This document shows positions 1-25,139 of a stretch of 26,703 nucleotides of DNA, piece after piece; position 1 is the first letter of the stretch; the number at the start of each line of letters is the position of its first letter. Made by a program: the position numbers and the translations under genes. The stretch is taken from positions 1-26,703 of IMG/VR virus record IMGVR_UViG_3300035200_000037; one strand, 5' to 3'. Source of the stretch: a virus (Duplodnaviria; Caudoviricetes). Below the pieces are notes generated by a model. The model was not told where the DNA came from, searched no databases, and saw nothing but the letters and a program-made list of their open reading frames with translations.

Positions 1-83
1 CCCCGTCAAGAACATCTCCTGTCGGGCATTGGAACTCTTACACACACGGCGTCTGAAAGTTCTCTGATCAGCGGGTTTGCTTT

Positions 84-92
84 TGCTATGGT
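84..92 (+). promoter_or_regulatory. Possible extended -10 promoter element for the leftmost operon
   Basis: TGCTATGGT (TGn-TAnnnT) about 33 nt upstream of ATG 126; the -35 position (CTGATC) is weak. Confidence 0.3.
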
Positions 93-125
93 GTATCCAC
101 TCGTCCCTACCGTGAGGAACCATCT

Positions 126-656
126 ATGACCAGTAACGAAGTCTCGTCAGCATCTCTCGGTACAGTTCGTCGTGTCCCGGTGGAGTCCCTGCATCTTGTG
201 GAGGGCAACCCGAGGCGCGGCCAGATTGAGGTCATTGCTGACTCACTCAAGGTGAACGGCCAGTACCGCCCCATCGTTGTGAACGAGGGATCGTTGACCG
301 GACGACCGATGGAAGTGCTGGCCGGGAACCACACTCTCCGGGCTGCTGTCCTGTTGGAGTGGGATGAGTTGGATGCGTTCATTGTCGATGTGGACGATGA
401 AGCAGCCAAGAGGATTGTCGCGGTGGATAACCGTTCCACCGACCTCGCCACCTACGACAACCAAGCGTTGCTCGACTTGTTGGAGTCCCTGCCCGACCTC
501 GGCGGCACCGGATACACGGACACAGACATCACCGCCCTGCAAGCATCAACCGCCGACCCGATTGTGCCCGACGACTTCCCCGGTTTCGACGAGGACATTG
601 ACACCAAATACTGCTGCCCGAAGTGCAACTATGAGTGGTCGGGTAAACCGAACTGA
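126..656 (+). CDS. ParB/sulfiredoxin-like N-terminal domain protein with C-terminal CxxC knuckle
   Basis: NPR, 'SLKVNGQYRPIVVN', 'VLAGNHTLRAA' and 'VDNR' match the ParB_N/Srx pattern; C-terminal 'CCPKCNYEW'; GAGGA RBS upstream. Confidence 0.85.
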   Translation: MTSNEVSSASLGTVRRVPVESLHLVEGNPRRGQIEVIADSLKVNGQYRPIVVNEGSLTGRPMEVLAGNHTLRAAVLLEWDELDAFIVDVDDEAAKRIVAVDNRSTDLATYDNQALLDLLESLPDLGGTGYTDTDITALQASTADPIVPDDFPGFDEDIDTKYCCPKCNYEWSGKPN

Positions 657-814
657 TGCCGGATGGTCAATGGGGCCCGGTCATCAACTGTGGAGTGTAT
701 CGGCGTTGTTCCTGCGGCCACTACCTCTTGAAACATGAGCCGTCCGGTCGCTGCGCTGCCACAGATGCGCTGGTCAGATGTTCATGCAAAGAGTTAGACC
801 TTGTTGATGAGTAA
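656..814 (+). CDS. Small Cys/His-rich putative zinc-binding protein (52 aa), absent from the ORF track
   Basis: Hand translation: MPDGQWGPVINCGVYRRCSCGHYLLKHEPSGRCAATDALVRCSCKELDLVDE*. Starts in a TGATG overlap with the ParB stop and ends overlapping the MTase start (ATGAGTAA), filling the gap exactly. Motif CxCGHx4Hx5Cx8CxC. Confidence 0.75.
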   Translation: MPDGQWGPVINCGVYRRCSCGHYLLKHEPSGRCAATDALVRCSCKELDLVDE

Positions 815-1988
815 ACCCCCGTACCACGTTCCCACCATGGACGAGATACGGGCGGTGGACAAACCGGGACTGATCGCGGCTTCCACCTTCTCCGGGTGCG
901 GCGGCTCATCACTCGGCTATCGCATGGCCGGGTTTGAGGTCAGGTACGCCAACGAGTTCATCGAAGCAGCTAGGGACACCTACGCAGCGAACATGGAACC
1001 GTACACCTACCTCGACGGCAGAGACATTCGTGACGTGAAAGGCACGGAGATACTTGAACATTGCGGAGGCGACGTTGACCTACTTGACGGTTCACCCCCA
1101 TGTTCCGACTTCTCCACCAGCGGCAAACGCGAAGCCGGATGGGGCAAGGTCAAGGAATACTCGGACGGCTCGCAACGTGTCGATGATCTGTTCTTTGAGT
1201 TTGCTCGTCTGGTTCGTGAAGTACAGCCCAAAACCTTCGTGGCCGAAAACGTGTCCGGGCTGGTCAAGGGCACAGCCAAAGGTTACTTCAAGTGGATACT
1301 GCGAGCGTTGCGCCAATCCGGGTACAGAGTCGAAGCGAAACTCTTGAACGCCGCATGGCTCGGCGTACCCCAAGCACGCCAACGACTAATCTTCGTCGGA
1401 GTACGCGAGGATCAACCATTCAACCCAATCCACCCAACCCCACTGCCCTACCAGTACACCTGTCGTGAAGTGATCGGTAACGATGCACCGCTACTCATCA
1501 TCCACGATCCACGCGGCATCTATCCAGTGCGGAACATGACCGACGTTCCTGCGATGACGTTGACGACGCAGACGGCAGCCCATGTTCAGGTGTGGGGTGA
1601 GGACAATGTTGAGGTTGACCCGGAAACCGGGGAGTCCATCGTGTTCCGCAGCTACGGCTTGTATGAAACGTGGAAACGGTTGAAGGTTGGTACAGGGGCG
1701 CAGGAGTCCAGGTTCAACCTGAAACGCACTTCACCGGACAAACCGTGTTTGACCATCTTGCAGACGGGTGGGCATCCTGGTGCCGCGTCGGTGACGCATT
1801 GGGATCAACCACGCAAGTTCACTTTGGCAGAGCTACGCAGACTGTCGGCGTTCCCTGACGACTTCGTGTTGACCGGAACGTATGAACAGAGGTACGAACG
1901 TATCGGTCGCGCTGTACCCCCGGTGATGATGTACCACGTCGCCGCAGGGATACGAGACAAACTGGTGGAGGCACGAAACAATGCCTGA
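807..1988 (+). CDS. DNA cytosine-C5 methyltransferase-fold enzyme; predicted cytosine C5-carboxymethyltransferase
   Basis: Motif I FSGCGG, motif IV GSPPCSDFS (catalytic Cys intact), motif VI ENV, motif VIII PQARQR, motif IX 'RKFTLAELRRLSAFPDDF', and motif X 'IGRAVPP' where 'GNAV/GNSV' is canonical. ATG 807 preferred over TTG 801 because of the 8-nt overlap with the upstream ORF. Confidence 0.92.
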   Translation: MSKPPYHVPTMDEIRAVDKPGLIAASTFSGCGGSSLGYRMAGFEVRYANEFIEAARDTYAANMEPYTYLDGRDIRDVKGTEILEHCGGDVDLLDGSPPCSDFSTSGKREAGWGKVKEYSDGSQRVDDLFFEFARLVREVQPKTFVAENVSGLVKGTAKGYFKWILRALRQSGYRVEAKLLNAAWLGVPQARQRLIFVGVREDQPFNPIHPTPLPYQYTCREVIGNDAPLLIIHDPRGIYPVRNMTDVPAMTLTTQTAAHVQVWGEDNVEVDPETGESIVFRSYGLYETWKRLKVGTGAQESRFNLKRTSPDKPCLTILQTGGHPGAASVTHWDQPRKFTLAELRRLSAFPDDFVLTGTYEQRYERIGRAVPPVMMYHVAAGIRDKLVEARNNA

Positions 1989-2769
1989 CGTGCGGAAAGT
2001 GTTACTAGCAGAGGTAGGACAAATCCCTGGTGATGAGGTTGCTGTTCTTCTATCTGGTGGCATTGACAGCTTGGCCTGTGGACTGGCTGCGAGACAGCTT
2101 GGAAAGAAAGTGGTTTCGTACAGTTTCACGTTAAACGGTCACGTTTCGACCGACTTCCAGGGTGCCCGGATGGTGTCTCGTGAGTTCGGGTTTGAGTTCC
2201 GTCCGGTCATCTTGCCCACTGATATGCCGTCGCTGGTGCGCGATCTGATGGACTTGGCTGACCTGGGCGCAAAGTCGAAAACAGATTATGAGTGTGGCTG
2301 GCCTGTTCTCCGGGCGATACGCCAGGTCGGTGAGCCAGCGATCATCACCGGGCATGGGGCAGACGGACACTTCTGCATATCGAAGAAGGGCATGATCCAC
2401 TACAAGGACACCCGGATAGACGAGTTCCGGCAAGGCTTGTTCAGCAACCCCCGCTACGCCCAACAAGAGTTGCTGCGTGCGGAAACCTCGAGGTTGGGCA
2501 AGTCCCTGTGCTTGCCGTTCCTGTCTGATGCGATGGTGAAAGAGTTTGCTGGCACGTCCTGGTCTGATGTGAACAAGCCGAAACAGAAACAACCGATCCT
2601 TGATGCGTTCCCGAAAGAGTTCGCCCGAGTGAAAGTGCGCCCCCACGTCAACTTGCAGCTTGGTGACTCCGGTATCGCCCAACACTTCTACAAGTTGTTG
2701 GACACCGACCTCAACACAGGTGGCTTCAAGACCCCGGTGGGGGTTTACAACAGGTTGACCAATGCCTGA
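1981..2769 (+). CDS. Asparagine-synthetase-like ATP pyrophosphatase (synthetase domain only); predicted amide ligase
   Basis: PP-loop 'VLLSGGIDS', 'ITGHGADGHF' (cf. AsnB SGEGADE.F) and 'LPFLS' (cf. vPFLD). At 262 aa it has no N-terminal Ntn glutaminase domain. Confidence 0.82.
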   Translation: MPDVRKVLLAEVGQIPGDEVAVLLSGGIDSLACGLAARQLGKKVVSYSFTLNGHVSTDFQGARMVSREFGFEFRPVILPTDMPSLVRDLMDLADLGAKSKTDYECGWPVLRAIRQVGEPAIITGHGADGHFCISKKGMIHYKDTRIDEFRQGLFSNPRYAQQELLRAETSRLGKSLCLPFLSDAMVKEFAGTSWSDVNKPKQKQPILDAFPKEFARVKVRPHVNLQLGDSGIAQHFYKLLDTDLNTGGFKTPVGVYNRLTNA

Positions 2770-3475
2770 CATTGCCGACAGCTTCAACACTGGTGGTTGG
2801 GAGTTCACCCCCGAAGTTACTGCGGTGTTCGATGACCACGTTCGGGCTTCGGTGCCCTACTACGACGACATACAGCAGATGGTTGCTGAGTTCTCGGACT
2901 GGCTGCTACCCGATAACAGTCTGTTCGTTGACCTGGGTGCATCAACGTGCACCACCTTGGAAACCATTTGTGCCCGACACCCCGGCAGAAGGTTCCGTGC
3001 CGAACTGTACGACGAGGAACCTTCCATGCTCGACAAAGCAAAAGACAAGGTGGCGGGGCTGAATGTCCTGTCAACCTTCCATGTGCAACGCCTACAGCAG
3101 CCGTTCAAGCACAAAGACGCAGACCTCACGGTCTCCCTGTTCACGTTGCAGTTCCTACGAGAACCAGACCGCTTGGCTGTACTCACCGAAGCCCGACGCT
3201 GCGCCGCACCCAACGGGGCGATCATCCTCGCAGAGAAGATACGACCGGAACACCCCTTGCTCGCTGAGATAGCAATGGACGCATCACACGACTTCAAGGC
3301 CAAGTGCGGCCTGAACGACACCGCTATCCGGTCGAAAGCTCGTGCGTTGCGCGGTGTACTGATGCCCCAACCACTGCCTACACTGATGGCAGAGCTATTC
3401 AAGGCCGGGTGGAACAACGCAGACGTGGTGTTCCGCTGGCACCAATGGGTGATTGTGATTGGGTTCGCTAGATGA
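2762..3475 (+). CDS. cmoA: CmoA-like carboxy-S-adenosyl-L-methionine synthase (class I SAM-MTase fold)
   Basis: Collinear with E. coli CmoA motifs as I recall them: WEFTPEVTAVFDDHVRASVPYY ([22 protein letters not shown]), DLGAS (DLGCS), FTLQFL (identical), ILAEK (VLSEK), HDFK (identical), KAGW (NAGF). Confidence 0.85.
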   Translation: MPDIADSFNTGGWEFTPEVTAVFDDHVRASVPYYDDIQQMVAEFSDWLLPDNSLFVDLGASTCTTLETICARHPGRRFRAELYDEEPSMLDKAKDKVAGLNVLSTFHVQRLQQPFKHKDADLTVSLFTLQFLREPDRLAVLTEARRCAAPNGAIILAEKIRPEHPLLAEIAMDASHDFKAKCGLNDTAIRSKARALRGVLMPQPLPTLMAELFKAGWNNADVVFRWHQWVIVIGFAR

Positions 3476-3849
3476 CAGACGACAAGGGACACAAAGCCCT
3501 ACAGCTGTTCCTCGCTGGGGTGACGTATTCACAGATCGCGGAAACCATCGACGTTCCGTTAGCCCAGGTAGACGAGTTAGTGGCTGCCGAGTTCGCGGTG
3601 ACACAGCAACGCCGAAAGGCGTTGATAGAAGAAGCATCTGCGGTTCACCAGGAACGTACTGAGGCGTTGTTTCGGGCGCATTGGGGGCCAGCACTCCGGG
3701 GTGACCACAAGAGCGCAGAGATATGTCGCCGCATCCTTGACCGTCAGGGTGCCCAACTGTTCTACGGTGAAGCCCCAACAATGGAAGGTGATGCGGTCGA
3801 TGAGATTGCGACACGGAGGGCTGCTCGCCGTGCGGGGCGTGCCGGGTAG
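3472..3849 (+). CDS. terS: Terminase small subunit (HTH-containing)
   Basis: N-terminal HTH 'ALQLFLAGVTYSQIAETIDV'; C-terminal 'DAVDEIATRRAARRA' typical of actinophage TerS; directly upstream of TerL; ATGA overlap with cmoA. Confidence 0.75.
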   Translation: MTDDKGHKALQLFLAGVTYSQIAETIDVPLAQVDELVAAEFAVTQQRRKALIEEASAVHQERTEALFRAHWGPALRGDHKSAEICRRILDRQGAQLFYGEAPTMEGDAVDEIATRRAARRAGRAG

Positions 3850-3851
3850 TA

Positions 3852-5282
3852 ATGGCTAGGAAACCGTCAGCGACTCTCGTCAAGCAAGCACCACCAAGGG
3901 TTCGCCACGCACCAAGCGTCCGGTCTAACGCCTGGGAAGATGTTGTCGATCTGTCGAAGTCGTTCGGCATGGTTCTTGACCCCTGGCAGGAGAATGTTCT
4001 GCAAGCCGCCATGGGTGAACGCACCGATGGAACGTGGGCTGCACGCCAGATCGCCGTATCCACCCCACGCCAAAACGGTAAAAGCCAACTTATCGTCGCT
4101 CGGGCGTTAGCCGGAGTCCTCCTGTTCAGTGAGCAGACCATCATCGTGTCAGCCCACCAAAAGGACACAGCCCGGGAAGTGTTCAACCGCATCCTCGACC
4201 TCGTAGATGCGTTCCCATCGCTGCAACGCCGCGTTGACCAAGTGATGAAAGCCGCCAACCGTGAGTTCATCCGGTTCTCGTCCGGGCAGACCATCCGGTT
4301 CAAGGCGCGGTCGGCTGGCGGCGGTCGCGGTTTCTCCTGCGACTGTCTCCTGCTGGACGAAGCGCAGATACTTAACGCCGCCGCATGGTCAGCGATCCTG
4401 CCCACAATGTCAGCCCGACCCAACCCCCAGGCTTGGCTGCTCGGCACCCCACCCACCGAGAACGATGACGGTGAAGTGTTTGAGCGCATGAGAACCCTCG
4501 GCATGGAAGGCACAGAACCCCGGATCGCCTACCTGGAATGGTCAGCAGACCGGGATGATCCGATTGATGACCCGGAGACTTGGGCCAAAGCCAACCCAGC
4601 GTTCGGCACACGTATCAGCCATGAAGCGGTACAGAACGAACTCGTTTCAATGTCCGATGAGCAGTTCGCCAAGGAACGTCTGGGCATTTGGGATGAGGTT
4701 GCACGCCACAAACCGCTGGTCACCATCCAACAGTGGCGCAACATGGCTGATCCTGGCCCGGAGGACGGTGAACGCCCCAACGCACTCGGCGTCGATATGA
4801 GCCACGGCAGGGACATCTCCATCGCTGCGTGCTGGATTCGCGGCGACAAAGCCCACATCGAACAAGTCTGGTCGGGCCTAGACCCGAAAATGGCTATCGA
4901 CTGGCTACAGGAACGAACAAAACGCCGCATACCTATAGTTGTTGATCAAGTTTCGCCAGCGTCGTCCCTGGTACCAGAACTAAAAGGTAGGAAGTGCAGA
5001 GTGACAGTGACGACCGCACCCATGATGGGTCAAGCATGTGGAGTGTTAGAGAACAGAATCAACACCGGAACCCTCACGCACGCTTCACAACCCGAGTTGA
5101 CCGACGCAATCCTCGGCGCACGCCGCCGCCCAATCCGCGATGCAGGAGGTTGGGGCTTGGACCGACGTGACCCAACTGCCGCTATCTACCCCATCGTTGC
5201 CGCTACGCTTGCCCTGTTCGGTGCGACGGAGAACCCCCGCCCGTCAGCCCCCGCCAAGAGAAGGGTTCAGGTGTTCGGATGA
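3852..5282 (+). CDS. terL: Terminase large subunit
   Basis: LDPWQ, Walker A 'PRQNGKS', Walker B 'LLLDEAQ', coupling motif 'GTPP', 'ANPAFG', nuclease-domain 'LGVD'. Confidence 0.95.
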   Translation: MARKPSATLVKQAPPRVRHAPSVRSNAWEDVVDLSKSFGMVLDPWQENVLQAAMGERTDGTWAARQIAVSTPRQNGKSQLIVARALAGVLLFSEQTIIVSAHQKDTAREVFNRILDLVDAFPSLQRRVDQVMKAANREFIRFSSGQTIRFKARSAGGGRGFSCDCLLLDEAQILNAAAWSAILPTMSARPNPQAWLLGTPPTENDDGEVFERMRTLGMEGTEPRIAYLEWSADRDDPIDDPETWAKANPAFGTRISHEAVQNELVSMSDEQFAKERLGIWDEVARHKPLVTIQQWRNMADPGPEDGERPNALGVDMSHGRDISIAACWIRGDKAHIEQVWSGLDPKMAIDWLQERTKRRIPIVVDQVSPASSLVPELKGRKCRVTVTTAPMMGQACGVLENRINTGTLTHASQPELTDAILGARRRPIRDAGGWGLDRRDPTAAIYPIVAATLALFGATENPRPSAPAKRRVQVFG

Positions 5283-24398: not shown

Positions 24399-24516
24399 TC
24401 TGTTGTTCCCTACCGTCTTTGGTTGAAGTGCGGTAGAACTGTTGTAACGGCGCGACCTGTCCTCGCGCTAGTAGTCGTCCCTTGCTGTTGTTGTTGTGCG
24501 AAGGGACAGGTTCGCC

Positions 24517-24813
24517 ATGAGACTCATCGCCGCCGCTTGTGTCGCTGCCTCCATGTTGGTGTCTGCCCCTACTGCTTCCGCTGACCCTTTCCTCGTCATC
24601 AACGTGACGGTGGTTGTTGCCCCCTCATACAACCCGACATTGAACCAGTACCAGATAACGAAGGTGACGGTCACGCAGACCAACTACGCACCAAACAACA
24701 CCAACGGTGATGTGACTGTCACTGTTACGAACAACAGACTTACACCGCAGAGTCGTGGTGTGAGGCCGGGGCCTAAAGCTCCGGTCAGGTCAACGAGAGG
24801 ACAGGTTCGTTGA
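24517..24813 (+). CDS. Secreted Thr/Val/Asn-rich small protein
   Basis: Sec-type signal MRLIAAACVAASMLVSAPTASA|DP; mature part has alternating V/T strands; AAGGGACAGG RBS region. Confidence 0.7.
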   Translation: MRLIAAACVAASMLVSAPTASADPFLVINVTVVVAPSYNPTLNQYQITKVTVTQTNYAPNNTNGDVTVTVTNNRLTPQSRGVRPGPKAPVRSTRGQVR

Positions 24814-25139
24814 AGAAGGTTATTGCAGTGATGGTGTTGTCGGGTGTGGCTGTTTTCGGTTCCGCTGGTATTGCGGCGGCTGACGGCGGTTCATCCAGCA
24901 AAAGCACGAACAAGACGGCGATCAAGGCTGCGGCTCGCGGTAACGCGACCACCGCCGCTAATGGTTCGTCGGCCAACTCGACGGTCACCGGGCCGTCTGT
25001 GTCGGGGCAGAACGCCAAGGTGCAGAGCACCAAGGTCAAGGTTGCTCAGACCAACGTGGCTGGCAACGCTAACGGTGATACCGCTGGTGGTGTTCAGACC
25101 AACGGCAACGTGACGGTGACGATCAAGGGCAAGCAGTAG
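24810..25139 (+). CDS. Secreted Thr/Asn/Ala/Gly-rich small protein, apparent paralogue of the upstream gene
   Basis: Signal MKKVIAVMVLSGVAVFGSAGIAAA|DG; TTG start with GAGAGG RBS and TTGA overlap; shares TKVxVxQTN and NGxVTVT motifs. Confidence 0.72.
   Translation: MKKVIAVMVLSGVAVFGSAGIAAADGGSSSKSTNKTAIKAAARGNATTAANGSSANSTVTGPSVSGQNAKVQSTKVKVAQTNVAGNANGDTAGGVQTNGNVTVTIKGKQ

Follow-up and report, generated by a model that had tools for sequence, protein, structure and literature searches.

A motif-X arginine in a phage protein with the C5-cytosine methyltransferase fold, encoded beside a CmoA homologue

Genomic setting of the cassette

The window, by which we mean the whole stretch of DNA that was analysed, is a 26.7-kb virus record (26,703 nucleotides) that is 39% complete and contains terminase, capsid, tape-measure and endolysin genes. 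A cassette with the gene order parB-cmoX-cmoY-cmoA was found on the forward strand directly ahead of the packaging genes, and overlaps of 8, 8 and 4 bases run along the cassette genes into the packaging genes. The first gene encodes a ParB_N-domain protein (positions 126-656; PF02195, E 6e-07). It is followed by cmoX (801-1988; PF00145, E 3.9e-56), which encodes a protein with the C5-cytosine methyltransferase fold and a predicted carboxy-SAM-dependent carboxymethyltransferase activity, and by cmoY (1981-2769; PF00733, E 9.9e-10), which encodes a CmoY-type ATP-dependent amide ligase of 262 residues without a glutaminase domain. The last gene (2762-3475) encodes a homologue of the CmoA-type carboxy-SAM synthases, whose best PDB match was E. 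coli CmoA (EcCmoA; 4GEK, E 1.4e-20).

The gene for the terminase large subunit (3852-5282, forward strand; PF03354) has the cassette directly upstream, and the closest named phages of its product were Brevibacterium phage Rousseau and Mycobacterium phages (44-46%). The phage is an actinophage-like siphovirus, and the likeness of its terminase suggests an actinobacterial host. A host-cmoA family search scored above the cut-off in one of 14 control genomes and singled out no host for the phage. Scans of window positions 1-4000 revealed no sigma-70-like promoter sites, and terminators at chance level only. After the lysis genes, we also observed two small forward-strand ORFs (24496-24813 and 24810-25139) whose products are rich in Val, Thr and Asn, have hydrophobic N-termini and gave no Pfam match.

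Motif X of the cmoX product

Motif X, YERIGRAVPP, is the translation of bases 1893-1922 on the forward strand (TAC GAA CGT ATC GGT CGC GCT GTA CCC CCG). An earlier note on this DNA had placed an Arg codon at 1908-1910 in motif X of a C5-methyltransferase, and we found this codon, CGC, to be in frame with the ORF 801-1988, where it specifies Arg370. Residues are numbered here from the TTG at 801; the ATG at 807, from which the residue would be Arg368, is the likelier start because a T802C change in an independent contig destroys the TTG and a 91%-identical homologue (P0001) begins at ATG 807. In alignments, Arg370 was located opposite the Asn in the GN of M.HaeIII (YKMIGNAVP), opposite M.HhaI Asn304 (YKQFGNSVV; position counted along the alignment), as the earlier note had expected, and opposite Arg350 of SpCmoX, the enzyme of Synechococcus phage S-B43 (ERVGRMVPP; PDB 8YF3).

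The window enzyme thus has Arg370 in place of the motif-X Asn that marks canonical SAM-dependent C5 methyltransferases. This Asn had been described as near-invariant, but it varies even among near relatives, as the sister clade described below carries Met (GMSVPP). Motifs I, IV (SPPC), VI (ENV) and VIII (Q-R-R) are all complete, as had been noted earlier. Structure 4DKJ of M.MpeI matched the window enzyme in its N-terminal part only.

The arginine recurs in related sequences: it is the motif-X residue in 119 of the best 120 homologues, and the remaining one has Asn. An independent contig (run X2, record 11, 1104-2396; 1,293 bases) covers the codon and shows 7 differences, all outside it. Among the 40 differences listed out of 55, all 20 variant sites in cmoX, counted from ATG 807, were synonymous, and 36 synonymous changes versus two changed codons were present across the three enzyme genes. 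A sequencing error or pseudogene was rejected on the basis of the homologues, the agreement of the second contig and the synonymous cmoX variants. A change from Asn to the codon CGC takes at least two base changes.

Structural comparison with SpCmoX

According to Yang et al. (Nat Commun 2025, PMC12783734), carboxy-SAM is the product of CmoA in phage S-B43; CmoX of this phage converts cytosine at GC sites to 5-carboxymethylcytosine, and its CmoY acts as a glycine ligase. The 1.9-Å structure of SpCmoX revealed that Arg350 stands at the place of HhaI Asn304 and touches the carboxymethyl group (PMC12783734, PDB 8YF3). Wild-type SpCmoX uses carboxy-SAM only, and R350N is inactive with both cofactors (PMC12783734). 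The same paper used SPPC together with R350 as a search criterion, obtaining 5,615 CmoX candidates, and pointed out the likeness of R350 to M.MpeI N374K, on which the equivalence of N374 rests here. The Arg signature is therefore already published as the CmoX hallmark, and the window gene is a further member of the CmoX family. The contig that encodes an identical protein did not appear in the source data of that paper up to the Fig. 8 sheets.

The top PDB sequence match of the cmoX product was 8YF3 (E 2e-63, versus 8e-25 for M.HaeIII), with 43% identity to SpCmoX, and the same structure was the top Foldseek match of the cmoX model (E 3.8e-26, TM 0.71/0.83; mean pLDDT 80). The motif IV SPPC (1092-1103, forward strand) contains the catalytic Cys101, which corresponds to SpCmoX Cys98 in the alignment. 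Upon comparison with the cofactor contacts listed for SpCmoX in PMC12783734, we found that F25, E47, F48, D69, S95-C98 and R350 correspond to F30, E52, F53, D75, S98-C101 and R370. Because each listed contact is conserved in the window enzyme, we propose that Arg370 has a role in holding the cofactor carboxylate. Additionally, wherever at least 90% of 124 Arg rows agree in a column, the window enzyme agrees with them. The earlier proposal that the arginine signals altered cofactor specificity rather than decay agrees with the biochemistry and crystal structure of this 43%-identical enzyme (PMC12783734).

After the catalytic Cys, a loop of residues 120-129 (1158-1187, forward strand) with the pattern Y-S-D-x-x-x-R-x-D-D co-varies with the motif-X Arg. 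S121 and D129 were present in 124 of 124 Arg rows and altered in all six Asn-revertant rows; S121, D122, R126, D128, D129, Y162 and H333, besides the Arg itself, were conserved in the Arg rows and altered in the Asn rows. The loop was modelled at low confidence (pLDDT <50). The corresponding region of M.HhaI also contacts DNA. The loop changes in the Asn clade, which is one lineage, may represent a new target site and not cofactor choice.

The target-recognition region contains an insert of about 40 residues (226-265; 1476-1595, forward strand) that repeats a T-D-x-P-x-x-T-L module. As evident from the homologue comparison, the insert is present in P0001, P0003 and P0004 and missing from SpCmoX, P0007 and P0002, the last of which is 93% identical elsewhere. 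With a loose pattern, 0-3 such modules per protein were found among 120 homologues, and three proteins (P0018, P0020 and P0039) have an additional C-terminal half in front. In the window, the observed/expected ratios of GpC and CpG were 0.89 and 0.99, respectively. The GpC ratio of the window was low versus GC-matched loci, but it was 0.94 in an actinophage locus without CmoX (Evaa) and 1.03-1.10 in the three nearest relatives of the window. Word counts showed that GGCC, GAGC/GCTC, GATC and CGCG are rarer than expected in the window.

The ligase and the CmoA homologue

The window ligase is 35-37% identical to SpCmoY and shares with it the motifs SGGxDS, K-T-x-x-EC, GxGADG-x-x-x-x-SKK and H-x-NLQLG. 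A set of 18 other CmoY-type rows has 32 columns with at least 85% conservation, and the window ligase keeps every one of them; it is of the CmoY type, having an asparagine-synthetase ATP domain without a glutaminase and a conserved core. The slot between cmoX and cmoA is variable: in the group formed by the window with the three closest relatives (support 100), it holds a CmoY-type ligase in the window, a glutaminase-fused AsnB in L016 and nothing in L017 and L320. Of the 128 Arg rows whose downstream sequence extended for at least 2.5 kb, 79 had no ligase, 34 the glutaminase type and 15 the CmoY type; these counts come from two profiles that divergent ligases could escape. An 11-base direct repeat, CAATGCCTGAC, flanks cmoY (1979-1989 and 2760-2770) and has no other copy in the window; it is partly due to the start/stop overlap.

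The window CmoA homologue is 29% identical to SpCmoA and 54-56% identical to gp125 of Streptomyces phage TurkishDelight. Its TIGR00740 score was 106.9 bits and that of the active SpCmoA was 115.6 bits, both below the curated cut-off of 193.3. EcCmoA Arg199, with numbering taken from the alignment with the tagged 4GEK protein, is the carboxylate-binding residue (PMC3663124). The window homologue has Ala193 at this position and SpCmoA has Glu, and both have an Arg four residues past it. Of 231 phage-linked rows, only 22 have Arg at the position of Arg199, and 107 have the downstream Arg. SpCmoA thus shows the same departures from the bacterial equivalog, namely a score below the TIGR00740 cut-off and the absence of Arg199, and on its sequence the window homologue is assigned to the phage CmoA type only, not to the bacterial equivalog.

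We also found that Cys63 (codon 2948-2950) replaces the last Gly of G-x-S-x-G, which is EcCmoA G68. This Gly-to-Cys change in motif I was present in 10 of 231 rows, four of which are the window or identical copies, and it is common to the closest relatives. Residues Y34, K179 and K192 agree with 226, 230 and 230 of the 231 rows, respectively. Judging from the active SpCmoA and the close relatives, the missing Arg199 and the Gly-to-Cys change are probably tolerated. Homologues of cmoA were also observed in Staphylococcus phages (KT429160.1, MT880872.1 and MW589261.1), in one of which the gene adjoins a CmoY-type ligase.

Co-occurrence of the arginine and cmoA

The co-occurrence of Arg-type enzymes with cmoA, which the earlier note had suggested looking for across phages, was clear. 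In viral loci fetched by methyltransferase queries, cmoA lay on the fetched stretch in 80 of 83 Arg rows, including the identical twin of the window (L005), versus none of 124 non-Arg rows (0/74 with Asn, 0/49 with Met; the remaining row has Glu). When at least 2.5 kb was available on both sides, the viral counts were 26 of 26 versus 0 of 79. The genome loci gave 65 of 68 Arg rows versus 0 of 8 non-Arg rows, and the loci seeded with cmoA contained 64 complete C5 enzymes, every one with Arg. A locus was kept in these sets when motif X and the catalytic part shared a reading frame, which retained 85/85, 49/57, 73/80 and 76/80. Each of the three viral exceptions has less than 1.5 kb downstream, and the genome exception whose flanks are complete carries cmoA at another place in the genome. 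The small P value of this association overstates the evidence because the rows are relatives, and the tree needs three changes in all.

A ParB gene was near the Arg enzyme in 70 of 83 viral rows, and ParB(c) genes often neighbour CmoX candidates (PMC12783734). Several Verrucomicrobiota assemblies (L121-L161) each contain 3-6 separate parB-cmoX-cmoA loci, which may mean that the cassette is repetitive there.

Phylogeny of the motif-X residue

A quick LG+G4 tree was built from 162 of 357 rows, from which near-copies had been removed and in which the Met and distant Asn rows were subsampled; the outgroup contains long branches. The Arg rows, the window and SpCmoX among them, formed one clade together with a small Asn group (SH-aLRT 99), and the Met group was its sister. 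This sister clade (GMSVPP) consists of C5 methyltransferases of Bacteroidota phages (L012:3001-4056, L013:2920-3987, L235:3001-4080 and L175-L231). The six Asn rows (GNSVPP) formed one clade (99) nested within Arg sets with support values of 95 and 96. Asn-bearing GNSVPP loci comprise L087:4674-5705 (reverse strand), L080, L127, L129, L142, L154, L156, L159, L162 and L163, and the nine genomes or records that hold these ten loci, which are possibly incomplete, gave no cmoA match at E 1e-10, while the positive control (G010) was detected.

On this tree, Arg is the ancestral state of a large clade and not a substitution of the window phage. A fresh lineage-specific change was rejected on these grounds, and the Asn-to-Arg substitution that the earlier note had read from the motif is to be taken as a clade-wide state. 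The note had also taken the Arg as independent support for the neighbouring cmoA; the two were inherited together, so neither independently confirms the other. The simplest reading of the sequences is that Arg was gained once and reverted to Asn once, together with the loss of cmoA, and the nested Asn clade is likely a natural return to SAM use. No report of such a natural reversal was found in the literature searched, which scarcely covered subscription journals.

In the nested Asn lineage, the loop is rewritten to E, H, Q, N and E. We tentatively consider, as a possibility that we hold to be rather doubtful, that the Arg is half of a cofactor switch, that loop residues S121-D122...D129 are a second determinant tuned to carboxy-SAM, and that the Asn lineage would again be a SAM methyltransferase. 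If true, a two-part switch would account for the inactivity of SpCmoX R350N, and the Asn lineage would serve as a natural model for turning methyl- into carboxymethyl-transferases and back. A revertant of Arg370 to Asn, which the earlier note had put forward for assay, may not restore SAM use because SpCmoX R350N is dead with both cofactors (PMC12783734); the window revertant would probably likewise be dead rather than SAM-using.

Proposed function of the cassette

From sequence comparison, we consider it very probable that the window enzyme is a CmoX, which would put a carboxymethyl and not a methyl group on DNA cytosines with the cofactor supplied by the predicted cmoA. By analogy with SpCmoA and EcCmoA, the CmoA homologue would use prephenate to convert SAM of the host to carboxy-SAM. 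Cys101 would then attack C6 of the flipped cytosine while Arg370 holds the cofactor carboxylate, as suggested by 8YF3, and 5-carboxymethylcytosine would be formed. The CmoY-type ligase would adenylate the carboxyl group and couple it with an amine (most probably glycine), and the modified base would shield the phage DNA against host restriction enzymes. ParB probably helps to load the machinery onto phage DNA, which is the weakest step. The sequence, its alignment, the order of the genes, their co-occurrence and their intactness are direct observations, from which we infer the chemistry, the amine, the role of ParB and the target site, for which GC is the site of SpCmoX. The low identity to SpCmoX (43%) weighs against the assignment, as do the departures of the CmoA homologue described above.

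Two other explanations were weighed against carboxymethylation. An ordinary or dual-use SAM methyltransferase that tolerates the Arg and still writes 5-methylcytosine, at least partly, would be in keeping with the Met tolerated at motif X in the cmoA-free sister clade and with the engineered M.MedI N377K and M.MpeI N374K, which carboxymethylate yet still methylate with SAM (PMC12015181). The earlier note had cited M.MpeI N374K as turning a methyltransferase into a carboxymethyltransferase; the gain of carboxymethylation stands, but the implied loss of SAM methylation does not. We regard this explanation as improbable, since wild-type SpCmoX takes carboxy-SAM only (PMC12783734), the linkage of Arg with cmoA is near-perfect and the sole lineage that lost cmoA reverted to Asn. 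Still less credible, and in our judgement very remote, is a decaying cassette in which CmoA is inactive and the Arg enzyme is left without a cofactor in an actinobacterial host. The CmoA replacements A193 (EcCmoA R199) and C63 (G68), the TIGR00740 score below the cut-off and the different or absent ligase of the nearest relatives would fit such decay. However, the active SpCmoA likewise lacks R199 and scores below the cut-off, Y34, K179 and K192 of the window CmoA are the prevailing residues, and the excess of synonymous changes across the three genes (36 versus two changed codons among the 40 differences listed out of 55) argues for functional genes.

Within the carboxymethylation reading itself, an amine other than glycine, a site other than GC, or both, is possible but somewhat unlikely. 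The window ligase is just 35-37% identical to SpCmoY, ligase clusters with other pocket residues exist (PMC12783734), and the variable region of the window enzyme is unlike that of SpCmoX and has an extra module; on the other side, the ligase shares its motifs with SpCmoY and has no glutaminase domain, and the window GpC ratio of 0.89 is compatible with a GC site without settling it.

Comparison with related systems

The window and S-B43 systems are similar in the equivalence of R370 and R350, the SPPC motif, all listed cofactor contacts and the presence of cmoA and a glutaminase-free cmoY as neighbours. They differ in sequence (43%, 37% and 29% identity for CmoX, CmoY and CmoA, respectively) and in gene order, which is cmoA-cmoY-cmoX in S-B43. 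In addition, the window cassette includes ParB and adjoins the terminase of an actinophage-like siphovirus, and its CmoX has the 40-residue insert. M.HhaI and M.HaeIII (PF00145) share the fold and motifs I, IV, VI, VIII and IX with the window enzyme, whereas their motif-X residue is Asn (HhaI N304) and their donor is SAM. In M.MpeI N374K and M.MedI N377K, a basic residue at the motif-X Asn similarly permits the use of carboxy-SAM; in contrast to the window enzyme, these are engineered Lys variants that are CpG-specific, still use SAM and have no gene for cofactor synthesis.

Streptomyces phage TurkishDelight (MW291017.1), a cultured phage, encodes in gp122-gp125 a ParB, an Arg-type C5 enzyme (58-59%), a ligase and a CmoA homologue in the same order as the window; its locus (L002:2341-7369) contains two ParB genes. 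The TurkishDelight ligase is of the glutaminase-fused AsnB type, which predicts ammonia and not glycine as the amine, and the product of an ammonia-type ligase was beyond what the authors of PMC12783734 could test. The phage therefore offers such a ligase for study. The main text of PMC12783734 names no actinobacterial phages, and our literature search, with scarce coverage of subscription journals, returned no report of CmoX in actinophages; the present analysis adds an actinophage-like virus to the carriers of the full glycine-type cassette. The natural Arg-to-Asn reversal could reveal other determinants of SAM versus carboxy-SAM use, which is relevant to enzymes for carboxymethylation-based sequencing.

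We also observed a second kind of cassette, in which CmoX is replaced by a ParB-fused methyltransferase of another kind (DFGAG, SSVLNSVPF) next to cmoA, in the cultured Gordonia phage Evaa (OP434461.1; L003:702-3952) and in L317, L326, L348 and L397-L475. The ParB-fused enzyme has 737 homologues, and cmoA was present in 78 of 80 loci seeded by it; none of these loci matched motif X of the C5 enzymes or contained a ligase. Adenine-N6 and cytosine-N4 carboxymethyltransferases are stated in PMC12783734 not to have been found, and the ParB-fused enzyme is a candidate for one or the other.
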